Below are positions 1 to 29,637 of a stretch of 39,954 nucleotides of DNA, one piece after another. A program made the translations under genes and the position numbers. The notes beneath the pieces were generated by a model, which was given only the letters and a program-made list of their open reading frames with translations, was not told the DNA's origin and did not search any database. The number at the start of each line of letters is the position of its first letter. Position 1 is the first letter of the stretch. This DNA is from a virus. Taxonomy: Duplodnaviria; Heunggongvirae; Uroviricota; Caudoviricetes. The stretch spans positions 1-39,954 of the IMG/VR virus record IMGVR_UViG_2534681675_000013; one strand, 5' to 3'.

Positions 1-1074
1 TCATTTGTCGATTTCAATTTTGTCCCATTCCCGTCCACGGCTGTCCCTATACCGCGCCGCCATTGAATCTGATTTATGCCCGAGAAGACGTTGAGCAAAC
101 TTATCGCCAATCTGGTTCCGGTATAGCCTCGCCGACAGGCTACGCAGTTCATGGAATGTTGGCGGGTCTCCATCAAATGAGAGTCCTGATGCATTTCTCG
201 CCTTTGTAAAATACTTCGATACTGTTTTCGGGGAAAGCGGATCGTGATGCTTTGATGCGATTATTGTTTCACTGCTGCTGGCCTCCCTGCATTTCTGTAG
301 TGTATCAGCCAATGAGATATTGAGCGCGTCAATCGTTAGCGTTAGCGGAATGGCGAGTTTAGCCCCTGTTTTACTCTGTTCAATGTGAAGATGGTTGTCG
401 TTTATGTCTGACCATTTCATTCTGCACAAATCGCCGACTCTCTGCCCTGTAACGACGGCCAAATCCATCGCCAGCCTTAGCCAGATAGGGAGAGGTTCGG
501 CTGCATGGTAAATCTCGACATACTCATTAGCTGTCAGCCTTGAGCGCCTTACTTCTGACTTTGCTGTACGGGTTGCTGTTACCGGATTCGTTGCCACATG
601 CCCCTCGGCTATTGCTTCACGAAAAACGTCAACAAGGGTTGATCTGATTAATTTTGCGGAGGCCGCTTTACCTTCTGCTACGTAGGTGTTTAGCATTGTT
701 GCCACCTCTTTCGTTGATATGTCAGCGAGCGGTTTGTCCGGCAATTTTCTTCGGATTGCCCTGATTTTGCTGGCGTAGTCGAGTAGAGTTTTCGGCCTGA
801 TACCCCTCTCGCTGAGGATTGTTTCATATCGGTCAAGCCACACATGAAGAGTGATTACGTCAGCGCCTTTAATTCTGTCTATCAGTGACTCACGCCTGTT
901 CTCGGATAGCAACTCAATATTGGCCTGAATAGCCTCTGAAACTGCTATCCTTCTGTCTCTGCCTAATCCGAACTCTTTACCCGTCCTTGGGTCCCTGTAG
1001 CAGTAATATCCATTGTTTCTTATATAAAGGTTAGGGGGTAAATCCCGGCGCTCATGACTTCGCCTTCTTCCCAT
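1..1074 (-). CDS. int: Tyrosine integrase, lambda Int family
   Basis: 357-aa ORF; N-terminus MGRRRSHERRDLPPNLYIRNNGYYCYRDPRTGKEFGLGRDRR matches lambda Int as I recall it; C-terminal HELRSLSARLY catalytic region; 3' end overlaps xis as in lambda. Stop codon at window positions 1-3, so attL lies off-window to the left. Confidence 0.95.
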   Translation of the reverse strand: MGRRRSHERRDLPPNLYIRNNGYYCYRDPRTGKEFGLGRDRRIAVSEAIQANIELLSENRRESLIDRIKGADVITLHVWLDRYETILSERGIRPKTLLDYASKIRAIRRKLPDKPLADISTKEVATMLNTYVAEGKAASAKLIRSTLVDVFREAIAEGHVATNPVTATRTAKSEVRRSRLTANEYVEIYHAAEPLPIWLRLAMDLAVVTGQRVGDLCRMKWSDINDNHLHIEQSKTGAKLAIPLTLTIDALNISLADTLQKCREASSSETIIASKHHDPLSPKTVSKYFTKARNASGLSFDGDPPTFHELRSLSARLYRNQIGDKFAQRLLGHKSDSMAARYRDSRGREWDKIEIDK

Positions 1075-1270
1075 TTCTGATCCTCTTCAAAAGGCTACCT
1101 GTTACTGGTCGATTTAAGTCAACCTTTACCGCTGATTCGTGGAACAGATACTCTCTTCCATCCTTAACCGGAGGAGGGAATATCCTGCATTCGCGCACCC
1201 ATCGACGAACTGTTTCAAGACTTCTTGGACGTCGCTGGCGTGCGTTCCACTCCTGAAGTGTTAAGTACAT
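1052..1270 (-). CDS. xis: Excisionase
   Basis: Internal start giving 72 aa MYLTLQEWNARQRRPRSLETVRRWVRECRIFPP..., matching lambda Xis as recalled; overlaps int start region. Confidence 0.9.
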   Translation of the reverse strand: MYLTLQEWNARQRRPRSLETVRRWVRECRIFPPPVKDGREYLFHESAVKVDLNRPVTGSLLKRIRNGKKAKS

Positions 1271-1374
1271 CGCAAAGTCTCCGCAATTACACGCAAGAAA
1301 AAGCCGCATTGATGCGGCGATGGTAGGTCTGGATATCATTGAGCAATGAACAGGCCGGCGGTGTTATTTCATGG

Positions 1375-1719
1375 TTAGTCCTTGCGTAGCTCGCTGATTC
1401 TTCTGTAAGTCTCTGGTGCTTTGTTTCCGTGTATCTTCATTTCAGACTTCAACAGAGCAACGAGGGAATCCCATTCGTTGAGGATTCCTTTGAATGCCGG
1501 AACGCGCTTTGCAACCTTGTTGAATGAATCTCTGATTTCTGGAATCTGCTCAACAAGTGCAACGCATCGTCTGAAATCGGCTGCGTCATGGGGAGCGCCG
1601 AAGTGATGACCATAGATATTCTTTTTCAGTCCACATGCGATTGAGGCAAGAGTTGCGCTACTGATGCCAACATCGCCAGTCGATTGCCATTTCAAAACCT
1701 TCATAGCCAAATCTGACAT
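1375..1719 (-). CDS. Hypothetical early-left protein (114 aa), contains YGHHFGAPHD motif
   Basis: ATG start with GGAGA Shine-Dalgarno upstream; first gene downstream of xis on the leftward operon; no family recognised. Confidence 0.5.
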   Translation of the reverse strand: MSDLAMKVLKWQSTGDVGISSATLASIACGLKKNIYGHHFGAPHDAADFRRCVALVEQIPEIRDSFNKVAKRVPAFKGILNEWDSLVALLKSEMKIHGNKAPETYRRISELRKD

Positions 1720-1791
1720 TTCTTGTCTCCATAAAACAAAACCCGCCGTAGCGAGTTCAGATAAAAGAAATCCCCGCGAGTTCGAGGATTG

Positions 1792-2076
1792 TTATTCATT
1801 GCCGATATTCACCTTTATCGCGAACACCTTTACCGGTTTATCGCCGAAGTGCGGATGTGTGATTGTCTTGATTTCATATCCGTCATACGGAACATCAATT
1901 CTACGGCTGGAATCGTCGCGCTTCGGATATCCCTTTGTGATAATCAGGCGGTCATACTCCCTGAACATAATTCGCTTATTCCAGTAGTCATTACACAGGC
2001 GATACTCTTCCGTTTTCTCCCCGCGAATCATGGCATCGAAGTATTCACCTTTAACGGCAAGTTGCAGGTTAGCCAT
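1792..2076 (-). CDS. Hypothetical protein, possibly ASCH/PUA-like
   Basis: Start MANLQLAVKGEYFDAMIRGEKTEEYR placed at the internal ATG that overlaps the upstream stop (TAATG); pattern resembles ASCH domain N-termini. Family call is tentative. Confidence 0.45.
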   Translation of the reverse strand: MANLQLAVKGEYFDAMIRGEKTEEYRLCNDYWNKRIMFREYDRLIITKGYPKRDDSSRRIDVPYDGYEIKTITHPHFGDKPVKVFAIKVNIGNE

Positions 2077-2336
2077 TACCTCACCTCCAGTCTCCATACC
2101 GCCTGACCAATCCGGCTGGCATGGGTATCTTTGGATACTGTTCCGTCTTTAGCCAGCTCCATAAGAATTTTGCGCAAATCTGCCGAACGCCATTCTTCAT
2201 CAGGAAATTCCTTCTCCATTGCCAACCGCAGATTCCAGGTTGCCATCCTGAATGGATATTCCCCGCCGAGAGCTTTATCTTGCAGGGCAGCCCGGGAACG
2301 CATCACCTGCAAAACCTTCTCTTTTACATCCATCAT
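2076..2336 (-). CDS. Hypothetical protein (about 86 aa)
   Basis: Start chosen at MMDVKEKVLQ, where ATG overlaps the stop of the upstream gene (ATGA coupling); the longer ORF-track start would overlap the upstream gene by about 150 nt. Confidence 0.4.
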   Translation of the reverse strand: MMDVKEKVLQVMRSRAALQDKALGGEYPFRMATWNLRLAMEKEFPDEEWRSADLRKILMELAKDGTVSKDTHASRIGQAVWRLEVR

Positions 2337-3163
2337 TTCGCCTCCTGCGGCGGTTCTGGTAGCGGCATCCAGAACAAGGCGTTCCCTAACCACGATAAAG
2401 TGCCGTCGCTCAACTCCACGTATTCCCCTTGTACCTGTCCTGCCATATACTCGCCGTGCTTTGAATAAATTAAAATCCAATCATCTTGAGGGGGCATTCG
2501 CTCACTACAGCTTATCCAACCATCCGGAGTTACCGGAGAGCTGGTTGACGTTTCCGAGATTTCCCGAAAATTGTTGGTTGACGAATTCGTATTTCCCCGA
2601 AATTTTCCGCCATGAAGCACGGCGGCGTTATATCCATCCGCGAAAATCTCTGCTTCTTCGTTATTCAGTTCGGCACCAAGTTTAAGCGCAATAGCTTTTG
2701 CCATTGAGGCGGTAATTTGATGGCATGGCTGACGTCCGTGAAGCATGGCGTCGCTCCGCTCTATGCCATCCAGCGCAATTCGAAGCGCATGAATTGTAGT
2801 GATGCAATCGTTTGGGGTTATTCCGTATCGTTCGAATACAGCGATATGGTTGCGCATAATCGCGGGTGTAAGCTCTTTGTAAGCAAGAGCAAGAGGTCCA
2901 GATACATCGTTCAGCACTACCGTCATCGGTGAGGCGGCGTAGACTTCAATAATCCCAGTATCAATAGGCCATTCCCCATCCTTGATATAGTAACTTGTTC
3001 CGTCAACTTGCTGTTCTACAATGTGGAAAGTACCTATTGGCTCTGCTTCCAGCGATGCCAGTGCAATTTCATAAGCCCGGCGTTCAATATTGTCTCGAAC
3101 GTCCAGGCTGCTGATACGCTCTTTGATTTCTTTAATCAGTTCTTTGTCGGTGAAAGTGGTCAT
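2333..3163 (-). CDS. Hypothetical protein with DUF551-like C-terminus (276 aa)
   Basis: Start MTTFTDKELIKEIK preceded by AAGGAG; C-terminus ends ...LSWLGNALFWMPLPEPP, a pattern I associate with DUF551 proteins of lambdoid ea regions. Confidence 0.5.
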   Translation of the reverse strand: MTTFTDKELIKEIKERISSLDVRDNIERRAYEIALASLEAEPIGTFHIVEQQVDGTSYYIKDGEWPIDTGIIEVYAASPMTVVLNDVSGPLALAYKELTPAIMRNHIAVFERYGITPNDCITTIHALRIALDGIERSDAMLHGRQPCHQITASMAKAIALKLGAELNNEEAEIFADGYNAAVLHGGKFRGNTNSSTNNFREISETSTSSPVTPDGWISCSERMPPQDDWILIYSKHGEYMAGQVQGEYVELSDGTLSWLGNALFWMPLPEPPQEAK

Positions 3164-3164
3164 A

Positions 3165-3719
3165 TCACTCTCCTTTAATGCGAATGCCAGCGGCGCGGAT
3201 AGATTTCCATTGTTTCCACATTCGGTTGAAGTCTGTGCCTGATAAGGTTGCGTTACGGTATCCAGTTTCAGTACGCAATCCTTCAAGCGTCGATTTGGAG
3301 ATACAAATTGAATGCATTACCCATGATTCAAACAAATCACGCTCCCGGGCTTCGCAACTTTGCTTACTCATCTCTTCGATACGTTCAGCCATCGCAGCAC
3401 ACTCTTCAAAGTTGCTTAATGCTTTTCGCTCCCATTCGGCGCATTGTTTTCCAAGCTCTGCAATCAGCTTGTCTTTGCCTTCCAGCTCAACACGCAGCTT
3501 CCCTACCGTTAGCGCAATATCCTCATTCTCCTGGTCGCGGCGTTTGATGTATTGCTGGTTTCTTTCCCGTTCATCCAGAAGCGCCAGCACAGTGCGTGGC
3601 GTTATTAAGGACTCAAATTCGGCAACAGCTTGCTCACCTCGCTTGTAATTCTTAATCTCACCTAAATCTTTCGCGTTCTGTGCTGCCTCACGCAGTGCCT
3701 GGTAATTAATTTCGCTCAC
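3165..3719 (-). CDS. Hypothetical coiled-coil protein (Ea22/Ead-like position)
   Basis: Charged, heptad-like sequence ([27 protein letters not shown]); probable GTG start after AAAGGAGG rather than the ORF-track start at 3740. Confidence 0.4.
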
Positions 3720-3879
3720 TGGTTGCCTCCTTTGCGCCACATAGCATTCAGATATTTGTTTTGATTCACTGATGGAAAAGAATTTCTCTTAAGCAATTCC
3801 TCTCTCGATGGCATTGGCTTTACGCGTTGGCGAATAATCATTTCTGCCGGAAGAATGCCGGGATTGTATGCAAGTCCTC

Positions 3880-4161
3880 TCATGATTTACTCTCCACGAA
3901 CTGGTCAATAGCCATGCTAAGTGACACACCTAAAGTCTCGATATGCTGCTGAATATCCTGTAGCGTCTGCGCCTGAGATAACAGGATTTCACGGTTGCAT
4001 AATTCTTTAACCAGATGCTCAAACTTGCTGTAATAACCGATACGGCTTAGTGTTTCTTTCCCTGCATTCTCACCTTCTTTGATAATTCCTCTTTCATTAA
4101 GAATCAGGTCGTGTTTTGTTCCAGTAATAACGTATTTGCCGAGGTCGATGTTTAGCTTCAT
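3880..4161 (-). CDS. Hypothetical protein (93 aa)
   Basis: ORF in the same leftward operon; no recognisable motif. Confidence 0.4.
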
Positions 4162-4177
4162 TGTTAATTACTCCATG

Positions 4178-4492
4178 TTAATTTATTCGTATGCCTGCTC
4201 TTTCTTCATCGAGTTTTTTTAGCTTGTATCGCATAGCCCTTACTGAATAAATTGAGCGGCAGGTTGCAATTGCTATTTCTTCTGCGGAGAACTTACCGAA
4301 AAGTGATACTTCGGCTCTTGTCCATCGTCTTCCACGAAGTCGGCTAACAATGTCAGCGCCAATCCTTGTTGCTTTCGCCATTACTGCTTTTTCAGTCCTT
4401 TCCAGTTTTTCAGCGATAACTTCAACTGGCATTGTCGCCGCCACTTCGCGCAAGAAATCGACTTCCCATTTCTCCCATGGAGTCTTTTTCAT
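4178..4492 (-). CDS. Hypothetical protein (104 aa)
   Basis: ORF in leftward operon; basic, possibly nucleic-acid binding; no family recognised. Confidence 0.4.
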   Translation of the reverse strand: MKKTPWEKWEVDFLREVAATMPVEVIAEKLERTEKAVMAKATRIGADIVSRLRGRRWTRAEVSLFGKFSAEEIAIATCRSIYSVRAMRYKLKKLDEERAGIRIN

Positions 4493-4503
4493 AGGCGATA
4501 CCG

Positions 4504-4986
4504 TTATTTGATAAGAAGTGAAGGTTTCCCAACTTTGAGTTGAGCGCCGGGGATATTTATTCCTGCTTTTAGCTGGTGTTTGATTGCCAGTTTGTCGGCT
4601 TTAATTGTCGTTTCAAACTCAACGTATTCAGGAGGAAGGGCGCTTGAGTCGATTATTTCTACAATTTCTGACGGTTTGCGAATTGTTACCTGGTGAATAC
4701 CTGCTCGAATCTTTTTCTTGCCAACCATTTCAAGCGATGACGCTATATACGCCATAATGCTGTCAATCTTATTTTGAATTACTGCGGCTCTCTCATTTAG
4801 TGACTTTGCCTCGTCCTTGAGGCGTTCAGCATAACCAGATTCATTTTTAATAATGGCAAGAAGTTGCTCTATTTTATCGGTAAATTCTCCTTCCATTCCT
4901 TCTATTGTGTCAGCAATCATCTCTGGCTCTAAATCTGAATCCATCAGCTTTGCGTATTCATTGACTATTTCATACAGTTTGCTCAC
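4504..4986 (-). CDS. Gp157-family-like protein adjacent to recombinase
   Basis: About 160 aa, acidic/coiled; lies immediately downstream of the RecT-like gene, where Gp157-type proteins usually sit; start taken at GTG after GGAGG. Confidence 0.45.
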   Translation of the reverse strand: MSKLYEIVNEYAKLMDSDLEPEMIADTIEGMEGEFTDKIEQLLAIIKNESGYAERLKDEAKSLNERAAVIQNKIDSIMAYIASSLEMVGKKKIRAGIHQVTIRKPSEIVEIIDSSALPPEYVEFETTIKADKLAIKHQLKAGINIPGAQLKVGKPSLLIK

Positions 4987-5881
4987 TGGCAACCTCCAGT
5001 TTCGCTTTGCATTCTATGTAAATGGCTTGTACGTTCTGCTGCAATTTCATTCCAGATGTCAGGCGATATGCTTCTGCAAAATATCGTTTCAAATCATCCA
5101 TGTTTTCTGCCTGAGCCATTTCATCACAAAGAAGTTGAGCTTTTTCCATAATTTCCTGCTGGCGTTTCCGTTCATCTTCGCGGATATCTTCCTCTGATTT
5201 GTGCGGCATAACTGGTTCAGTCCATACACCTTCTTCTTCGTTTAGTACGTGAATAGCACTATCAAGACGTGATGCCTTAGGCCAATACTTGCTTGCACGC
5301 TTTACGACCGTCTTTCGCGCCATCTCATTCCAGTGATTTACCCATGGTCCTTTATCTCTGAATGCCGCCTTGCTTGTTTTCCTTACAGCCTCAATTTCAG
5401 CCAGACTCATCTCTTCCGTTAGATAATCACCTGCTGGCGTCTTAACTGTGCAGTAAACGCCAACGATATCACCACGATCACCGAAGGCGTTGTATTTATG
5501 GGTTGGTGCTTTATCAAGCCCGTTTGACTCATAGGTATCGTTAGCATGAACAAGTTTTGCCTGACCCCATGAGATAACACCAGACTCCATTGCAATATGG
5601 AGCAATCCCATATAACTGATATCAAGGCACACCATGCCGTCGCGCGGAACCAGATAAGCCAGTTTGCTAGCCGGGTTTAAGGTGATGCCGATCGCCGCAA
5701 CATTGATGATGGCGTTCTGTGCGCTGGTTGGATTTTCCAGTGCTGTTTTAGCCAGGTAATCATTTTTCTGGAAATACTGAATTGCAAACTGGCTTTCCTT
5801 AGCCCATGTCACCGTCTGTTCAGTCAATGCTCCGCAGAATAACTGCTCTTGCTGTTTAACGAATTCAACGATATTGCTCAT
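4970..5881 (-). CDS. RecT-family single-strand annealing protein
   Basis: 303 aa; region AAIGITLNPASKLAYLVPRDG...LDISYMGLLHIAMESGVISW fits the RecT pattern as I recall it; occupies the position of lambda bet/exo. Confidence 0.7.
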   Translation of the reverse strand: MSNIVEFVKQQEQLFCGALTEQTVTWAKESQFAIQYFQKNDYLAKTALENPTSAQNAIINVAAIGITLNPASKLAYLVPRDGMVCLDISYMGLLHIAMESGVISWGQAKLVHANDTYESNGLDKAPTHKYNAFGDRGDIVGVYCTVKTPAGDYLTEEMSLAEIEAVRKTSKAAFRDKGPWVNHWNEMARKTVVKRASKYWPKASRLDSAIHVLNEEEGVWTEPVMPHKSEEDIREDERKRQQEIMEKAQLLCDEMAQAENMDDLKRYFAEAYRLTSGMKLQQNVQAIYIECKAKLEVASEQTV

Positions 5882-6189
5882 GCTGCTTCTCCAAAAATGT
5901 GTCTGCGTTTGAATATTGCGAAGGCATATTCAGCCTTAACTCTTTTGGTTATTGCATCCCAGAACCATTCAGCGGCTTTTTCCTGATAGTCACAGTCATC
6001 ATCTTCCAGCCAGTCGATAGCGTCCTTAGTGTGTTCATCTGGCTTATATGAGCGAAGCATTTCGCTTATTGGGTCACAACGTTTGCAGAGGCGATCAACT
6101 TCACTGTTGATTCGTTCGTAATCTTCATCAGTAAAACTTGCGATGATTTGCGATATTTCACGCTTATCATTCAGAGTCAGAATCATCAT
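5878..6189 (-). CDS. Hypothetical protein (103 aa)
   Basis: ATGA-coupled to the RecT-like start; acidic; unknown function. Confidence 0.4.
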   Translation of the reverse strand: MMILTLNDKREISQIIASFTDEDYERINSEVDRLCKRCDPISEMLRSYKPDEHTKDAIDWLEDDDCDYQEKAAEWFWDAITKRVKAEYAFAIFKRRHIFGEAA

Positions 6190-6270
6190 CTTTCTCCTGT
6201 TCTTTGTGCTGATTGAGCATTTTGTTCATCTGACGAATGAATTCTTCGTCTGACCAGTTATCTGTAAAAC

Positions 6271-6423
6271 TCATTTCCTGCGATACCACGGAAGGTTGAT
6301 AGCTGATTTCATCTCTTTATTTGCTTCAAGCCACATTTTGGAATCACCAATAAATCTGGCTATTACTGCTTTGTTTTGTGCCGCACGAAGCATCTGGTGA
6401 TTGATGGCTATTTCATTGCGCAT
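6271..6423 (-). CDS. Small protein (50 aa) in the position of lambda kil
   Basis: Hand-translated MRNEIAINHQMLRAAQNKAVIARFIGDSKMWLEANKEMKSAINLPWYRRK with GGAGG upstream; below the ORF-track size cutoff; identity to Kil is positional only. Confidence 0.35.
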   Translation of the reverse strand: MRNEIAINHQMLRAAQNKAVIARFIGDSKMWLEANKEMKSAINLPWYRRK

Positions 6424-6542
6424 AACGCCTCCAGTTGTTTCTTTGCTGCTCTGATTAATTGTTTAACTCGGCGTGATAATTCAGATTCGTGCGGGTAGAA
6501 AGCGGACATGACGCCGCTACCCGCGAGCTGAAAGTGCATCAT
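6408..6542 (-). CDS. CIII-like small protein (44 aa)
   Basis: Hand-translated MMHFQLAGSGVMSAFYPHESELSRRVKQLIRAAKKQLEALCAMK with AAGGAG upstream; resembles CIII-type protease inhibitors and sits in the cIII position. Confidence 0.5.
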   Translation of the reverse strand: MMHFQLAGSGVMSAFYPHESELSRRVKQLIRAAKKQLEALCAMK

Positions 6543-6617
6543 GGGTAACTCCTTATATTTGATTGCATAACGAAAACGCCTCGAGTGAAGCGTTATTGGT
6601 ATGCGGTAACGCAGCGC

Positions 6618-6986
6618 TCAGGCGGCTTTGATAGTCATATCATCTGAATCAAATATTCCTGATGTATCGATATCGGTAATTCTTATTCCTTCGCTACCAT
6701 CCATTGGAGGCCATCCTTCCTGACCATTTCCATCATTCCAGTCGAACTCACACACAACACCATATGCATTTAAGTCGCTTGAAATTGCTATAAGCAGAGC
6801 ATGTTGCGCCAGCATGATTAATACAGCATTTAATACAGAGCCGTGTTTATTGAGTCGGTATTCAGAGTCTGACCAGAAATTATTAATTTGGTGAAGTTTT
6901 TCCTCTGTCATTAAGTCATGGTCGATTTCAATTTCTATTGATGCTTTCCAGTCGTAATCAATGATGTATTTTTTGATGTTTGACAT
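6618..6986 (-). CDS. Hypothetical protein (122 aa) in the lambda ea10 position
   Basis: Located between the cIII-like gene and ral, as ea10 is in lambda; assignment by position and size only. Confidence 0.35.
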   Translation of the reverse strand: MSNIKKYIIDYDWKASIEIEIDHDLMTEEKLHQINNFWSDSEYRLNKHGSVLNAVLIMLAQHALLIAISSDLNAYGVVCEFDWNDGNGQEGWPPMDGSEGIRITDIDTSGIFDSDDMTIKAA

Positions 6987-7188
6987 CTATTCATATCCTC
7001 ACAGAAAAAAATCGCCCTCACACTGGAGGGCAAAGAAGATTTCCAATAATCAGAACAAGTCGGCTCCTGTTTAGTTACGAGCGACATTGCTCCGTGTATT
7101 CACTCGTTGGAATGAATACACAGTGCAGTGTTTATTCTGTTATTTATGCCAAAAATAAAGGCCACTATCAGGCAGCTTTGTTGTTCTG

Positions 7189-7368
7189 TTAACCAAGTTC
7201 TCTGGCAATCATTGCCGTCGTTCGTATTGCCCATTTATCGACATATTTCCCATCTTCCATTACAGGAAACATTTCTTCAGGCTTAACCATGCATTCCGAT
7301 TGCAGCTTGCATCCATTGCATCGCTTGAATTGTCCACACCATTGATTTTTATCAATAGTCGTAGTCAT
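7189..7368 (-). CDS. ral: Restriction alleviation protein Ral
   Basis: Hand-translated MTTTIDKNQWCGQFKRCNGCKLQSECMVKPEEMFPVMEDGKYVDKWAIRTTAMIARELG, which matches lambda Ral as I recall it; 59 aa, so absent from the ORF track. Confidence 0.6.
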   Translation of the reverse strand: MTTTIDKNQWCGQFKRCNGCKLQSECMVKPEEMFPVMEDGKYVDKWAIRTTAMIARELG

Positions 7369-7446
7369 ACGGATAGTCTTGGTATTGTTCCATCACATCC
7401 TGAGGATGCTCTTCGAACTCTTCAAATTCTTCTTCCATATATCACC

Positions 7447-7773
7447 TCAAATAAGTTGTTTGCTGCCTAATTTCATTTTCTGGCGACCAACACAAGTCAC
7501 ACCCATTTCACTGCGTGGCTTGCTGTACCATGTGCGCTGATTCTTGCGCTCAATACGCTGCAGGTTGCTTTCAATCTGTTCGTGGTATTCAGCCAGCACC
7601 GTAAGGTCTATCGGATTCAGTGCGCTTTCTACTCGTGATTTCGGTTTGCGATTCAGCGAGAGAATAGGGCGGTTAACTGGTTTTGCGCTTACCCCAACCA
7701 ACAGGGGATTTGCTGCTTTCCATTGAGCCTGTTTCTCTGCGCGACGTTCGCGGCGGCGTGTTTGTGCATCCAT
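7447..7773 (-). CDS. N: Antiterminator N
   Basis: Internal start MDAQTRRRERRAEKQAQWKAANPLLVGVSAKPVNRP..., near-identical to lambda N as recalled (arginine-rich boxB-binding motif). Confidence 0.9.
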   Translation of the reverse strand: MDAQTRRRERRAEKQAQWKAANPLLVGVSAKPVNRPILSLNRKPKSRVESALNPIDLTVLAEYHEQIESNLQRIERKNQRTWYSKPRSEMGVTCVGRQKMKLGSKQLI

Positions 7774-7883
7774 CTGGATTCTCCTGTCAGTTAGCTTTGA
7801 GTAACGCGCCGTGATGCTTATCTCCACGGTTGCTGTCTTGCAGCTGCATTTCGCGCTACTCAAAGCCTTCTGCTTTGAATGCT

Positions 7884-7914
7884 GCCCTTCTTCAGGGCTA
7901 AATTTTTAAGAGCG
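7884..7914 (-). promoter_or_regulatory. nutL (boxB hairpin and boxA)
   Basis: Minus strand carries GCCCTGAAGAAGGGC (boxB) and CGCTCTTA (boxA) between pL and N. Confidence 0.7.
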
Positions 7915-7955
7915 TCACCTTCATGGTGGTCAGTGCGTCCTGCTGATGTGCTTAG

Positions 7956-8016
7956 TATCACCGCCAGTGGTATTTGTGTCAACACCGCCAGAGATAGTTT
8001 ATCACCGCAGATGGTT
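7956..8016 (-). promoter_or_regulatory. oL1-oL2-oL3 operators with pL
   Basis: TATCACCGCCAGTGGTA, CAACACCGCCAGAGATA and TATCACCGCAGATGGTT read directly; these are the canonical lambda oL half-site pairs. Confidence 0.85.
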
Positions 8017-8061
8017 ATCTGTATGTTTTTTATATAGATTTATTTTTTGCAGGGTTGTGTG

Positions 8062-8069
8062 GATTGGGA
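8062..8069. repeat. Left copy of 8-bp target-site duplication GATTGGGA
   Basis: GATTGGGA immediately precedes the IS left end and recurs immediately after the right end. Confidence 0.7.
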
Positions 8070-8154
8070 GTAAGCGTAAACCGACCGCCGTATGTAGCCA
8101 TTAGACAAGAATTGGTAACTTAGACGCCCATCTGACACAGACGGACATCTAAGT

Positions 8155-8574
8155 ATGGAATTACAGGACTGGCGAAAAGAACCTCGTAAAAAGTATTCGA
8201 ATGAATTCAAACTTCGTATGGTTGAACTGGCATCACAACCCGGTGCTTGTGTGGCTCAGATTGCACGAGAAAATGGCGTCAATGATAATGTTATTTTCAA
8301 ATGGCTCAGACTCTGGCAAAACGAAGGGCGTATATCACGGCGTCTTCCGGTGACAACCACTTCTGATGCAGGCCTTGAATTATTACCTGTAGAGATAACC
8401 TCTGATGAGCCGAAAGAACCGATGGCTGCTCTTACTCCGCCCTTATCCACTCAGACTACTGTCAGTGCCAGCTCCTGCAAGGTGGAGTTCCGTCACGGTA
8501 ACATGACGCTGGAAAATCCTTCACCAGAGCTGCTCACTGTATTGATTCGTGAACTGACCGGGAGGGGAAGATGA
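8155..8574 (+). CDS. tnpA: IS66 accessory protein TnpA (orf1)
   Basis: 139 aa, first ORF of the element; ATGA-coupled to the next ORF. Confidence 0.8.
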   Translation: MELQDWRKEPRKKYSNEFKLRMVELASQPGACVAQIARENGVNDNVIFKWLRLWQNEGRISRRLPVTTTSDAGLELLPVEITSDEPKEPMAALTPPLSTQTTVSASSCKVEFRHGNMTLENPSPELLTVLIRELTGRGR

Positions 8575-8920
8575 TCTCACTCCCATCCGGTACCCGTATC
8601 TGGCTCGTTGCCGGGATAACCGATATGCGTAAGTCTTTCAACGGGCTGGGTGAACAGGTACAGCATGTGTTAAATGTTAATCCCTTCTCCGGTCACCTGT
8701 TATCTTCCGTGGCCGACGGGGTGACACCGTTAAAATTCTTTGGGCTGATGCTGATGGTCTGTGCCTGTTCACCAAACGCCTGGAGGAAGGCCAGTTTATC
8801 TGGCCTGCGGTGCGTGACGGTAAGGTATCCATTACCCGCTCGCAACTGGCAATGCTCCTCGATAAGCTGGACTGGCGTCAGCCAAAAACATCCCGCCTTA
8901 ACGCCCTGACAATGTTGTAA
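8571..8920 (+). pseudogene. tnpB: IS66 TnpB (orf2), apparently frameshifted
   Basis: First 40 aa (MISLPSGTRIWLVAGITDMRKSFNGLGEQVQHVLNVNPFSGHL) are in one frame; the conserved C-terminus (...VKILWADADGLCLFTKRLEEGQFIWPAVRDGKVSITRSQLAMLLDKLDWRQPKTSRLNALTML) is in the +1 frame, consistent with a 1-nt deletion near 8700. Confidence 0.55.
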
Positions 8921-8950
8921 AAAACGCCTGGCCGCATTATAAAAACGGCC

Positions 8951-10543
8951 ATGAGTCAGAAATACCTCATTCGCATTGCAGAACTGGAAAGCCAGCTCCG
9001 TCAGAAAGACCAGCAACTGAGTCTGGTTGAAGAGACGGAGGCCTTCCTGCGCTCTGCACTGGCACGTGCCGAAGAAAAGATCGAAGAAGATGAACGGGAA
9101 ATAGAACATCTGCGGGCTCAGATAGAAAAACTGCGCCGGATGCTGTTCGGTACCCGTTCTGAAAAACTGCGTCGTGAAGTTGAACAGGCTGAGGCCCTGC
9201 TGAAACAACGCGAACAGGACAGCGATCGTTACAGTGGGCGGGAAGACGATCCACAGGTTCCCCGCCAGTTGCGACAGTCGCGCCATCGTCGTCCGTTACC
9301 GGCACACCTTCCCCGTGAAATACACCGTCTGGAGTCTGAAGAAAGTTGTTGCCCGGAATGTGGCGGCGAGCTGGATTATCTGGGGGAAGTCAGTACTGAG
9401 CAGCTGGAACTGGTGAGCAGCGCCCTGAAAGTGATCCGCACAGAACGGGTAAAAAAAGCCTGTACAAAATGTGACTGCATCATTGAAGCACCGGCGCCGT
9501 CCCGCCCGATAGAGCGTGGTATCGCGGGCCCCGGATTACTTGCCCGCGTGTTAACGGGAAAATACTGCGAACACCTGCCACTGTATCGTCAGAGTGAAAT
9601 CTTTGCCCGACAGGGTGTCGAACTGAGCCGTGCATTACTCTCCAACTGGGTTGACGCGTGCTGCCAGTTAATGATGCCGCTGAATGATGCCCTGTACCGT
9701 TATGTGATGAATACCCGCAAGCTTCACACTGACGACACACCGGTAAAGGTACTGGCACCGGGCTTGAAAAAGACGAAAACAGGGCGCATCTGGACGTATG
9801 TCCGGGATGATCGCAATGCGGGTTCGTCATCTCCTCCGGCGGTCTGGTTCGCGTACTCACCGAACCGGCAGGGGAAACACCCGGAGCAACACCTCCGCCC
9901 CTTCCGGGGTATCCTGCAGGCGGATGCGTTCACAGGTTATGACAGGCTGTTCAGTGCAGAACGTGAAGGTGGTGCGCTGACAGAAGTTGCGTGCTGGGCC
10001 CATGCCCGGAGAAAAATCCACGATGTATACATCAGCAGCAAAAGTGCGACGGCAGAAGAAGCCCTGAAGCGAATCAGTGAACTGTACGCCATCGAGGATG
10101 AAATACGGGGATTACCAGAGTCAGAGCGTCTTGCAGTCAGACAGCAGCGAAGCAAAGCGTTACTGACGTCGCTGCATGAATGGATGGTGGAGAAGAATGG
10201 CACGCTGTCGAAAAAATCCAGACTGGGCGAAGCGTTCAGCTATGTACTGAATCAGTGGGACGCCCTCTGTTATTACAGTGATGACGGACTGGCGGAGACG
10301 GACAATAACACAGCGGAAAGAGCGCTTCGTGCAGTCTGTCTTGGAAAGAAAAATTACGTGTTCTTCGGTAGCGATCACGGTGGCGAGCGTGGTGCACTGC
10401 TATACGGGCTGATCGGCACCTGCCGTCTGAACGGTATCGATCCGGAAGCGTATCTGCGCCATATTCTGAGCGTACTGCCGGAATGGCCCTCCAACCGTGT
10501 TGACGAACTCCTGCCATGGAACGTGGTTCTCACCAATAAATAA
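8951..10543 (+). CDS. tnpC: IS66 transposase TnpC
   Basis: 530 aa; cysteine cluster CPECGGEL...CTKCDC and a long conserved core typical of IS66 transposases. Confidence 0.9.
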   Translation: MSQKYLIRIAELESQLRQKDQQLSLVEETEAFLRSALARAEEKIEEDEREIEHLRAQIEKLRRMLFGTRSEKLRREVEQAEALLKQREQDSDRYSGREDDPQVPRQLRQSRHRRPLPAHLPREIHRLESEESCCPECGGELDYLGEVSTEQLELVSSALKVIRTERVKKACTKCDCIIEAPAPSRPIERGIAGPGLLARVLTGKYCEHLPLYRQSEIFARQGVELSRALLSNWVDACCQLMMPLNDALYRYVMNTRKLHTDDTPVKVLAPGLKKTKTGRIWTYVRDDRNAGSSSPPAVWFAYSPNRQGKHPEQHLRPFRGILQADAFTGYDRLFSAEREGGALTEVACWAHARRKIHDVYISSKSATAEEALKRISELYAIEDEIRGLPESERLAVRQQRSKALLTSLHEWMVEKNGTLSKKSRLGEAFSYVLNQWDALCYYSDDGLAETDNNTAERALRAVCLGKKNYVFFGSDHGGERGALLYGLIGTCRLNGIDPEAYLRHILSVLPEWPSNRVDELLPWNVVLTNK

Positions 10544-10573
10544 GCGTCAATACGGTGCTCCGTTGACGCTTAC

Positions 10574-10581
10574 GATTGGGA
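10574..10581. repeat. Right copy of 8-bp target-site duplication GATTGGGA
   Basis: Exact repeat of 8062-8069 directly after the IS right end. Confidence 0.7.
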
Positions 10582-10689
10582 AGGTGATCGAGAGATCTGA
10601 ATTGCGATGTTTAGTGAGTTGTATCTATTAATTTTCAAATAAATACAATTGGTTATGTGTTCTTGGGTGAGGGGGATCGTGAGGCAAAG

Positions 10690-10715
10690 AAAACCCGGCT
10701 CTGTGGCCGGGGTAT
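10690..10715 (-). terminator. Rho-independent terminator of the leftward cI operon
   Basis: Minus-strand hairpin CCCGGCCACAGAGCCGGG followed by a T-rich run, directly downstream of the gene at 10720-11562; the flanking sequence resembles the lambda region downstream of rexB. Confidence 0.6.
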
Positions 10716-10719
10716 GCAT

Positions 10720-11562
10720 TTATGGTTTTTTTTGGTCGTGCTTTGCTAGGGCTTTATGAGTTTTCTTAATGCTGCTTCTAACTTTCTGAATTTTTTCTTG
10801 GGAAAGTTTTATGTTTTCAGGGGCTGTTCCAGTGTTAGAAATCATTACATTGCGAACAGATCTCCCTACGGTCTCAGCAGCATTCTCTAGTTGAGACTGT
10901 CCCTTCAGGTTCTGGTTTCTGATTCTTGCTTCTGTCTGTGTAATTCTGAATATATTGGCCGCGAGCTCTTCGCTTCCCATGAAGTCAAGCATCGTTCCAT
11001 CTTTTTTAGTTAGGCCTTTTCGAGCTTTCAACTGTGAGAGATTCATATTGTACATCCCACGGTAGCCCGCATTTTGAAATAGACCATAGTCGACTACTCC
11101 GTGTTTATGGGCTACATGACTGAGAGTTTTCTCTCTAGATGTAATCTCGCCACGCAAATAAACTCGATTAACTGCGTCATGGTTATGATATGTAGTGTGT
11201 ATTTCTGCTGCGAGCCCAGCAAAATAAGCTTGTGCATTTGCAACTTTTTGATTGCTGATGTCACCATTCATTACAATCAGATAACAAGCGAAACGAGTTA
11301 ATTTAAAGTCATTTTTCGCATTTTCTGAAGGCATCTGGATGAAGTTATCGTATACAGGGATATCGAGGCTCACACATACAGATGTAGCTTTGTTGATGGC
11401 TTTCAATATCTGATCCATGCCATTATATCCAAGCATCATCGCTAAATCAGATGCAAACCAATAGGTAACACCGTTTTCTCTAGCGAAATCATCAAATGTT
11501 AACTGTGATGTGTCATCGAAAACAGTAATTTGCCTACTCATATCACACCCGAACTTACTCAT
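10720..11562 (-). CDS. DinD/RhuM-like protein with Bro-N-like N-terminus, in the lambda rexAB slot
   Basis: 280 aa; N-terminal YWFASDLAMMLGY fits the Bro-N pattern; central and C-terminal regions (GLFQNAGYRGMYN, SEELAANIFRITQTE) resemble DinD-family proteins as I recall them. Family call is from memory. Confidence 0.6.
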   Translation of the reverse strand: MSKFGCDMSRQITVFDDTSQLTFDDFARENGVTYWFASDLAMMLGYNGMDQILKAINKATSVCVSLDIPVYDNFIQMPSENAKNDFKLTRFACYLIVMNGDISNQKVANAQAYFAGLAAEIHTTYHNHDAVNRVYLRGEITSREKTLSHVAHKHGVVDYGLFQNAGYRGMYNMNLSQLKARKGLTKKDGTMLDFMGSEELAANIFRITQTEARIRNQNLKGQSQLENAAETVGRSVRNVMISNTGTAPENIKLSQEKIQKVRSSIKKTHKALAKHDQKKP

Positions 11563-11642
11563 CGATTTTCCCTTATATTAATATAATGTGGATAGTTTGT
11601 CGCCAACTCGCTAAAGTTATTCATTATGAGGTTTGCCATCCA

Positions 11643-12359
<717 letters not shown>

Positions 12360-28219: not shown

Positions 28220-29637
28220 TGCCGATTCAGCAACTTCCGCTTATGAAAGGTGTCGGCAAAGACTTTCGAAACGCCGATTATATCGACTATCTGCCAGTGA
28301 ATATGTTGGCTACACCCAAAGAAATCCTCAACAGCAGCGGATATCTTCGCTCATTCCCGGGCATTGCCAAACGTTCTGATGTGAACGGTATATCGCGCGG
28401 CGTCGAATACAACATGGCGCAGAGTGCTGTTTATCGCGTGTGTGGTGGGAAGCTCTACAAAGGCGAAAGCGAAGTCGGTGATGTTGCCGGAAGTGGTCGC
28501 GTATCAATGGCGCATGGTCGGACATCACAGGCGGTAGGCGTTAATGGTCAACTGGTTGAGTATCGCTATGATGGCACGGTTAAAACCGTCTCAAACTGGC
28601 CTACAGACAGCGGATTCACGCAGTATGAGTTAGGTTCGGTTCGCGACATTACGCGCTTGCGCGGGCGTTATGCGTGGTCAAAAGACGGAACTGATTCATG
28701 GTTTATCACTGACCCTGAAGACGAATCGCACCCTGACCGCTACAGCGCACAATATCGCGCAGAATCGCAGCCTGACGGCATCATCGGCATCGGAACATGG
28801 CGAGACTTCATCGTATGCTTTGGTTCATCAACGATTGAATATTTCTCCCTGACGGGTGCAACCACCGTTGGTGCTGCTTTGTATGTCGCACAGCCATCTC
28901 TTATGGTGCAGAAAGGCATTGCCGGGACTTACTGCAAAACGCCATTCGCTGATTCTTATGCGTTCATCAGCAATCCGGCAACGGGTGCGCCGTCTGTATA
29001 CATCATCGGCTCCGGTCAGGTATCACCAATCGCCAGCGCGAGCATTGAGAAAATCCTCCGCTCCTACACTGCTGATGAACTGGCTGATGGCGTGATGGAG
29101 TCTCTGCGATTTGATGCGCATGAGTTGCTGATTATCCATCTTCCGCGCCATGTACTTGTGTACGACGCATCTTCAAGCGCTAATGGTCCGCAATGGTGTG
29201 TGCTGAAAACAGGCCTGTATGACGATGTGTACCGCGCTATCGACTTCATTTTCGAAGGCAATCAGATAACGTGCGGCGATAAACTGGAACCCGTGACCGG
29301 GAAATTGCAATTCGACATCAGCAGCCAGTATGGTCTTCAACAGGAACACCTGCTGTTTACTCCACTCTTCAAAGCAGATAACGCCAGAGTTTTCGACCTT
29401 GAAGTTGAATCTTCAACTGGCGTTGCGCAGTATGCTGACCGCCTGTTCCTCTCTGCAACCACTGACGGCATAAATTATGGGCGTGAGCAGATGATTGAGC
29501 AGAATGAACCGTTCGTTTACGACAAACGCGTTTTGTGGAAACGAGTAGGGCGCATCAGGAAAAACATTGGTTTCAAATTGCGCGTTATCACGAAGTCACC
29601 TGTCACTCTGTCTGGCGCTCAGATAAGGATTGAGTAA
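28219..29637 (+). CDS. Tail accessory protein (P22 gp10-like)
   Basis: 472 aa, same length and position as P22 gp10. Confidence 0.9.

Follow-up and report, generated by a model that had tools for sequence, protein, structure and literature searches.

Eight small genes in the early-left operon of a P22-like Escherichia coli prophage or phage: a new mosaic of known lambdoid cassettes

Eight minus-strand genes between xis and the recombination genes

The window analysed in this work is the whole 39,954-nucleotide (nt) stretch of the viral record IMGVR_UViG_2534681675_000013, and our subject is the interval 1375-4492 within it, a block of small genes in the early-left operon. On the minus strand this interval consists of eight genes (g1 to g8) and is 97% coding, with only 89 of its 3118 nt non-coding. 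Its ends are exact, position 1375 being the final base of the g1 stop codon and position 4492 the first base of the g8 ATG. An earlier note drawn from the sequence alone had described seven tightly packed minus-strand open reading frames (ORFs) between xis (1052-1270) and the recombination module (Gp157 at 4504-4986 and RecT at 4970-5881). The strand, the placement and the tight packing were all borne out, but the count was one short, the gene missed probably being the 55-residue DUF2737 gene at 3716-3883. The proteins singled out in that note are likewise present, namely an ASCH-like protein (a weak Pfam match plus a motif), a DUF551 protein, a coiled-coil protein and a protein with the motif YGHHFGAPHD. 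The eight genes are as follows (lengths in amino acids, aa).

1375-1719, minus strand: g1, 114 aa, phage 434 ORF114 family, phrog_1229, the last gene before xis
1792-2076, minus strand: g2, 94 aa, ASCH/PUA-like, phrog_625
2076-2336, minus strand: g3, 86 aa, stand-alone winged helix, phrog_2814
2333-3163, minus strand: g4, 276 aa, EaA-type modular protein with a C-terminal DUF551
3165-3719, minus strand: g5, 184 aa, Ead/Ea22-family coiled coil, phrog_29036, GTG start at 3719
3716-3883, minus strand: g6, 55 aa, DUF2737, P22 orf56 family
3880-4161, minus strand: g7, 93 aa, DUF5405, phrog_154
4178-4492, minus strand: g8, 104 aa, tandem helix-turn-helix (HTH), phrog_323 ('D5-like transcriptional regulator')

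At five of the seven internal junctions the genes overlap or are separated by 1 nt: g7/g6 (ATGA), g6/g5 (GTGA, the GTG start of g5 overlapping the g6 stop), g5/g4 (1-nt gap), g4/g3 (ATGA) and g3/g2 (TAATG). Wider spacers of 16 nt and 72 nt separate g8 from g7 and g2 from g1, respectively. GGAG-type Shine-Dalgarno sites precede seven of the eight starts, and we used such sites to choose the starts of g2, g3, g4 and g5, which are longer in the mechanical ORF list. With these choices, g2, g3 and g5 overlap the upstream stop codon and g4 begins 1 nt past it, and the chosen starts of all four genes coincide with the first residues aligned by their family profiles.

We then compared the minus-strand frames with homologous DNA from Gally, Louie, 720R6, HK022, lambda and P22. 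In 21 ungapped comparisons, 132 of 192 nucleotide differences fell at codon position 3, and for g6 against P22 the figure was 24 of 38. All eight proteins also matched PHROG families (E = 1e-20 to 1e-57). Because the substitutions favour codon position 3 and every product has a PHROG family, the eight minus-strand genes are real. Long plus-strand ORFs do overlap g2 (1789-2106) and g5 (3178-3648) and match the small families phrog_20945 and phrog_31165, yet there is practically no chance that the minus-strand frames are accidental or that the plus strand is the coding one, since the substitutions sit at minus-frame position 3 (over g2, this is position 1 of the plus ORF), GGAG-type ribosome-binding sites stand upstream of nearly all the minus-strand starts, the minus-strand proteins belong to broad and divergent families, and the plus ORF over g5 shares its third codon positions with g5, as a classic shadow frame does. 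In a frame that shares third positions with the sense gene, antisense stops are rare. Both plus-strand ORFs were dismissed as shadow frames on this codon-position evidence, and the two small families probably arose from shadow ORFs wrongly called as genes when other phages were annotated.

Protein families of the block

The product of g5 matched the Pfam family Ead_Ea22 (PF13935; E = 5.8e-20, 72.7 bits against a cut-off of 27) and was 66% identical to lambda Ea22, though only over residues 1-85, which comprise the N-terminus and the coiled coil. Its C-terminal domain is of a non-lambda type: a search of solved structures with g5 returned nothing at E <= 1, whereas lambda Ea22 finds 8DSX, the structure of its own C-terminal domain, at E = 1e-51. 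Variable or swapped C-terminal domains are normal in the Ea22 family (PMC10834534). Ea22 has been characterized as a pro-lysogenic developmental modulator (PMC7093339), and both the pro-lysogenic effect and the tetrameric state come from experiments on the Ea22 proteins of lambda and Stx phages (PMC7093339, PMC10834534).

The neighbouring g4 product has a modular architecture, in which an N-terminal segment is followed by a variable middle, a Ser/Thr-rich linker and a C-terminal DUF551 (Pfam E = 3.9e-10, 40.9 bits against a cut-off of 22). Five families, covering the N-terminal part and the whole protein, were matched by both g4 and P22 EaA (phrog_60, 3323, 660, 924 and 7704), and the C-terminal 72 aa of g4 are 42% identical to EaA. 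At the DNA level, a 51-nt DUF551 core (2493-2543, encoding GWISCSERMPP...) is 92-100% conserved in Louie, HK022, Gally, 720R6 and P22, while its surroundings are unrelated between the phage genes. This core is likely a hot spot for domain shuffling. The PADLOC search gave a single sub-significant match of g4, to JetA (E = 0.032).

The two short genes upstream of g5 belong to named families of uncharacterized proteins. The g6 product matched DUF2737 (E = 9.1e-32) and is 77% identical to P22 orf56. The g7 product matched DUF5405 (E = 5e-6), is 96% identical to Sf6 gene 24 and shares about 34% identity with an early ORF of P2 located next to a TraR-like gene and gene A. We set aside the PHROG label 'replication initiation protein' for g7, as the P2 homologue adjoins gene A and is not A itself; the label was probably carried over from the neighbouring gene. 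A literature search found no functional study of DUF5405 or DUF2737.

The promoter-proximal gene of the block, g8, encodes two repeats of a W-x3-E...IA...RS..SV HTH, and three such repeats are present in homologues of 151-154 aa. In a search of Protein Data Bank (PDB) sequences its profile weakly matched the NarL/LuxR HTH (E = 0.005). Both g8 and the P22 protein Abc1 match phrog_323, with overlapping profile positions (145-190), and g8 directly follows RecT-Gp157, which is the slot that Abc1 holds in P22. In Citrobacter prophages, homologues of g8 also use the slot after the recombinase genes (RecT-YqaJ-HTH). A protein of phage Gally that is 100% identical to g8 is annotated as 'similar to P22 Abc1'. 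The naming of g8 as Abc1 was not confirmed by sequence comparison, as BLASTP between g8 and Abc1 returned nothing and hhalign gave a probability of 24% (E = 8e-4). There is no abc2 homologue within the block.

For g3, the structure model has a winged-helix topology (a1-b1-a2-a3-b2-wing-b3) with strong structural matches, and NCBI records call its homologues 'eaa protein'. Its only PDB sequence match was a low-complexity TPR match without a scored stretch. For g2, the match to Pfam ASCH (PF04266) lies below the cut-off (14.1 bits against a gathering score of 21.2, E = 0.08) and covers profile positions 1-23 only. The GxKxxExR octapeptide, which is the ASCH motif as defined in PMC6803910, is nevertheless present in g2 as G19, K21, E24 and R26. 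The g2 family is large, with 752 representative homologues at 50% identity, and in a 40-sequence alignment of diverse homologues (A4) K21 is invariant and the other three motif residues are at least 90% conserved. Five of these 40 homologues match ASCH (E <= 0.01) and two match DUF3850. A profile search of PDB sequences with g2 found no ASCH structure. Across the PDB sequence searches for g1, g2, g3, g4, g5 and g8, nothing significant was obtained beyond the weak g8 and g3 matches.

The last gene, g1, has a 96% identical counterpart in ORF114 of phage 434, a phage that belongs to the species Lambdavirus lambda; in HK022, Gally and 720R6, genes without a name match it at 97-100% identity. A word-indexed search found homologues down to 58% identity, in Enterobacteriaceae only, with Y36, F40, A42, P43, D45, D48, R51 and C52 as invariant residues. 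The YGHHFGAPHD motif was considered as a catalytic or metal site and ruled out, because its histidines vary across homologues and are not conserved among those that are 60% identical. The AF2 model of g1 is confident (pLDDT 93.5) and all-helical, with seven helices; compared with solved structures it gave no fold match, and in BFVD it matched only uncharacterized phage proteins, one of them from Clavibacter phage CN1A. The protein has no Pfam hit. In Citrobacter and Cronobacter prophages, homologues with 60-79% identity likewise stand last before xis/int, beside at least three integrase types.

We also considered g1 as a dATP/dGTP pyrophosphohydrolase (PF04447, DUF550/MazZ) and rejected this, since the three PF04447-bearing matches are recombinant chimeras that cover only part of g1. 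More generally, in other genomes, fragments nearly identical to g1 are joined in frame to sequences of DUF550, Ea22, Kil or Erf (database proteins P0015, P0051, P0063, P0030, P0037 and P0053), and such fusions reflect either recombination inside early-left genes or artefacts of assembly or annotation. In two Citrobacter prophages (L008 and L009), the genes upstream of the g1 homologue encode a Dam methyltransferase, a DndB-like protein, a TraR/DksA-like zinc-finger protein and NinX, showing how far the cargo of this slot differs between related prophages.

Operon setting and mosaic junctions

The stretch as a whole is a P22-like (Lederbergvirus-type) E. coli prophage or phage. Its ORF layout is P22-like, from a terminase-size ORF through to a 647-aa ORF in the tailspike position that reaches the right end, and the closest phages, Gally and Louie, have tailspike genes. 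At the other end, a lambda/HK022-type integrase gene is cut at position 1. Around the block, the following features were located.

1052-1270, minus strand: xis of the lambda/HK022 type, the downstream neighbour (Pfam Exc, E = 1e-40; 100% identical to HK022 Xis)
1303-1318, minus strand: in the gap from g1 to xis, a terminator-like hairpin GCCGCATCAATGCGGC with a trailing T-run, matching t'I annotated in phage 434
1739-1790, minus strand: two tandem terminator-like hairpins in the g2/g1 spacer (z = -2.8), matching tL4 annotated in phage 434
4504-4986, minus strand: Siphovirus Gp157 / Mu Gam-like gene, the upstream neighbour (Pfam Sipho_Gp157, E = 1.6e-35; phrog_253 'Mu Gam-like end protection')
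4970-5881, minus strand: RecT, recombination module
7189-7368, minus strand: ral (restriction alleviation) homologue (phrog_1055, E = 2e-45)
7447-7773: lambda-type N (phrog_271), N sequence MDAQTRRRERRAEKQAQW
7898-7884, minus strand: boxB hairpin of nutL, GCCCTTCTTCAGGGC, there read on the opposite strand
7982-7954, minus strand: lambda-type pL (TTGACA-17-GATACT)

The genes cIII and kil also lie upstream in the early-left operon. A sequence scan found no minus-strand promoter-like site within 1375-4492. Because pL, nutL and N lie upstream, xis and int lie downstream, the interval has no promoter-like site of its own, and terminators stand at the tL4 and t'I positions, the block is, as judged from these sequence elements, the promoter-distal and N-dependent part of the early-left operon. 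The 434 t'I region aligns with the hairpin at 1303-1318. An Rfam scan of positions 1-12000 returned no RNA family at gathering scores.

Three further observations concern the surroundings of the block. The ral homologue, which lies outside 1375-4492, is the only member of this early-left operon that bears a recognised label for anti-restriction. The Gp157/Gam-like gene sits between RecT and g8, the position of abc2 in P22, and end-binding proteins of the Mu Gam type have been reported to license Gabija targeting (2025 preprint, PMC12407980). Just to the right of pL and N, where the early-left promoter region gives way to putative immunity genes (10720-12356), three consecutive transposase-family ORFs of 139, 112 and 530 aa occupy 8155-10543 on the plus strand, and their E. 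coli matches are annotated as the IS66-like element ISEc23. An IS element at this place in the immunity region may bear on whether the prophage still works.

The tL4-type hairpins belong to an 89-nt element (1712-1800, minus strand) that is 88-99% conserved in 314 phage records. It is present in lambda at 29284-29362 and corresponds to the feature 't-L4' of the 434 record (GenBank M60848), while the DNA flanking it is unrelated between phages and the genes on both sides differ. From this pattern, the element looks like a terminator that also serves as a recombination linker, or mosaic junction. It is one of several islands of 88-100% identity that pairwise blastn comparisons revealed in otherwise unrelated DNA, namely 1717-1796 (the tL4 spacer), 2493-2543 (the DUF551 core), and 3479-3593 and 3688-3736 (both within Ea22). 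These short islands, together with the g1 chimeras carrying DUF550, Erf, Kil or Ea22 sequences, point to cassette exchange at conserved linkers.

Each gene of the block has nearly identical counterparts among published phages, with copies that are 96-100% identical in 434, HK022, Sf6, Gally, Louie and 720R6. With 1375-4492 as the query, 593 phage records share parts of the DNA and none has 80% of it in one piece; with 1-12000 as the query, 5240 of 5426 E. coli genomes share parts and, again, none has 80% in one piece. By these comparisons, the arrangement is a new mosaic of known cassettes, in which only the combination is new. All its components are already known as sequences, from 434 ORF114 and the HK022, Sf6, P22 and lambda families, and the type of region is well described.

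Interpretation and comparison with known phage regions

Taken together, the interval is very probably the standard non-essential 'ea' segment, the counterpart of the lambda exo-xis region, in the pL operon of a P22-like E. coli prophage with a lambda/HK022-type int-xis. Transcription from pL would yield the eight small genes as delayed-early message, which N and nutL would carry past the tL4-type hairpins that separate g2 from g1 and past the t'I-type hairpin before xis. They would act as independent cassettes rather than as one machine, being swapped by recombination at short conserved linkers so that this phage carries its own mosaic. Within this set, g8 would be a tandem-HTH DNA binder of the Abc1 type beside the recombination genes, g5 a coiled-coil oligomer of the Ea22 type that favours lysogeny and has an exchanged C-terminal domain, g4 an EaA-type carrier of a portable DUF551 domain, g3 a free-standing winged-helix binder of nucleic acid, and g2 an ASCH/PUA-like RNA-binding protein or N4-acetylcytidine (ac4C) amidohydrolase. 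The remaining three, g1, g6 and g7, are small uncharacterized proteins. As a group, the genes most likely adjust host physiology and the choice between lysis and lysogeny. In lambda and Stx phages, early expression of the exo-xis region has been described, along with effects on lysogenisation and induction (PMC7093339, PMC3824215, PMC10834534), and in P22-like phages most early-left genes have no known function (PMC8022706).

Several points weigh against this assignment or its details. The ASCH membership of g2 is carried by its motif and by sub-threshold Pfam hits, and the lambda and Stx Ea22 proteins with a pro-lysogenic role have C-terminal domains unlike that of g5. The hairpin read-through is inferred from lambda biology. 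Moreover, the literature that we searched held no functional tests of g1, g3, g4, g6 or g7 in any phage.

The assignment retains the view of the earlier note that this is an accessory early-left segment of mostly uncharacterized genes, and none of the eight maps to a housekeeping phage function. Its claims that the operon is non-lambda and that nothing in it resembles lambda ea genes must be given up, as g5 is an Ea22 homologue, g1 is a gene of phage 434 and the g2/g1 spacer holds the lambda/434 tL4 element, and the order abc1-like, orf56, EaD/Ea22, EaA follows P22. Likewise, the proposed equivalence to the lambda ea/b region applies to the exo-xis ('ea') part and not to the b region, which in lambda lies across att.

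The earlier note had further proposed the genes as anti-defence candidates. On this account, the block would be a set of anti-defence or host-takeover genes, each neutralising an immune system such as restriction-modification, CBASS, Thoeris or RecBCD-linked systems. We regard this as improbable for the block as a whole, although counter-defence by individual members is possible. The block is early and N-dependent and shares its operon with ral and the Gam-like protein, and its content is highly variable and mosaic, as would be expected of arms-race genes. In addition, g8 has its PHROG family and its slot in common with P22 Abc1, and g1 combines a confident model with the lack of a solved-fold match, as do many small inhibitor proteins. 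In one screen, Abc1 itself made several wild E. coli strains sensitive to phages and set off cell death that depended on the P4 satellite (bioRxiv 10.1101/2023.04.06.535777). However, when g1-g8 were searched against Pfam, PHROGs, NCBIfam and PADLOC, no labelled defence or counter-defence family (e.g., Ocr, ArdA, Ral, Abc2 or Gam) was matched, although the libraries recognise abc2 and ral: as positive controls for the PHROG library, P22 Abc2 matched phrog_656 and the ral of this genome matched phrog_1055. These searches thus gave the proposal no direct support, leaving it neither supported nor excluded. The likeness of g8 to Abc1 is itself weakened by the empty BLASTP and low-probability hhalign comparisons, and the documented role of the Ea22 family is developmental rather than anti-defence (PMC7093339). 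In the accessory-gene table of Silas et al., the sole DUF551 fragment has a 0 in the adjacent column, which we read as no phenotype. The starts of g1 and g8 were not found in the supplements of the Silas preprint, nor were those of g1, g2, g3, g4, g7 and g8 in the supplements of the related Nat Commun screen paper. The only indirect lead towards anti-defence is g8, through its tentative remote kinship and its shared position with Abc1.

A different possibility concerns the promoter-proximal genes, where g8, perhaps with g7 and g6, would form an accessory arm of the recombination module. This arm would modulate RecBCD or DNA-end processing, cooperating with RecT and Gp157 in the way that Abc1/Abc2 cooperate with Erf in P22. 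Tandem-HTH genes directly follow the recombinases here, in P22 (erf-abc1) and in the Citrobacter prophages. In two Cronobacter-group prophages, an ORF of about 101 aa without a known family follows the recombination genes and precedes DUF2737 (L014: ERF, SSB, Rv2179c-like, 101 aa, DUF2737; L015: ERF, 125 aa, 101 aa, DUF2737), and the corresponding place in a third (L012), from RecT-YqaJ to DUF2737, is taken by a 65-aa ORF. Positional conservation is, however, usual in lambdoid mosaics and need not imply functional coupling, the block lacks an abc2 homologue, and the role of Abc1 itself is poorly defined. We consider such an arm unlikely.

Returning to the ea-segment assignment, we see a small chance that at least one cassette has a new host-directed mechanism, for which g2 and g1 stand out. 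The former may be a phage ASCH amidohydrolase that erases ac4C from host RNA early in infection, for example at the wobble base of elongator tRNA-Met; a 2026 preprint reports that 19 of 19 ASCH proteins tested remove ac4C from tRNA, which makes this a concrete candidate activity. The latter has a confident helical model without a solved match and keeps a fixed place before xis/int across several integrase types; it could be a small protein that inhibits in a new way, or one that modulates the switch between excision and integration.

As it stands, the block is textbook lambdoid mosaicism, with all its genes already in sequenced phages. Its value lies in a short list of very common prophage genes, including 434 ORF114, that exist in thousands of copies in E. 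coli, Salmonella and Klebsiella genomes. Should one of them turn out to counter host defence, erase an RNA modification or regulate the choice between lysis and lysogeny, that finding would carry over immediately to Stx-converting prophages and others of medical relevance in which these cassettes also occur. Three leads emerge: g2 might erase ac4C, g8 might be a factor of the Abc1 type, and g1 is a common prophage protein that always precedes xis/int and has no solved-fold match.

At the level of single proteins, g2 resembles the ASCH proteins E. coli YqfB, T. thermophilus TthASCH, human EOLA1 and TRIP4 in being a single domain of about 100 aa, and EOLA1 carries GxKxxExR at the very residue numbers found in g2 (G19/K21/E24/R26); it differs from them in its Pfam score below the gathering threshold and in the absence of a PDB ASCH match by profile. 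Similarly, g8 is like P22 Abc1 (anti-RecBCD 1; orf116 of Silas et al.) in being a small HTH protein of phrog_323 encoded immediately promoter-distal to the recombination genes, and unlike it in lacking pairwise BLASTP similarity and an adjacent abc2 and in having two clear repeats of one HTH type.

Among whole regions, the lambda exo-xis region (ea8.5, ea22, orf61, orf63, orf60a, orf73) is like the block in position and in pL/N control, and its tL4-type intergenic element is 94% identical to that of the block. However, Ea22 is the only gene in common, its C-terminal domain differs, and the block yielded no homologue of ea8.5, orf61, orf63 or orf60a (the lambda record used has no orf73 annotation). 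The int-xis-ORF114-ORF55 segment of phage 434 (GenBank M60848) has t'I and tL4 annotated at places matching this block, and the early-left end of HK022, like that of Gally, is about 95-96% identical to the int-xis-g1 part (1-1743). In 434, Gally and 720R6 an extra 55-aa ORF stands between ORF114 and tL4, whereas here g1 abuts the tL4 spacer.

The P22 ea region of Lederbergvirus (eaC-eaG-eaA-eaI-eaD-eaF-eaE-orf56, then abc2/abc1) differs from the block in having eaC, eaG, eaI, eaF, eaE and abc2, which are absent here, and in lacking g1 (434 ORF114), g2 (ASCH), g3 (winged helix) and g7 (DUF5405); int and xis are also of the P22 type there and of the lambda/HK022 type here. The two regions are alike in place, strand and operon, and their shared families follow the same order, from the abc1-type HTH through orf56/DUF2737 and EaD/Ea22 to EaA/DUF551.

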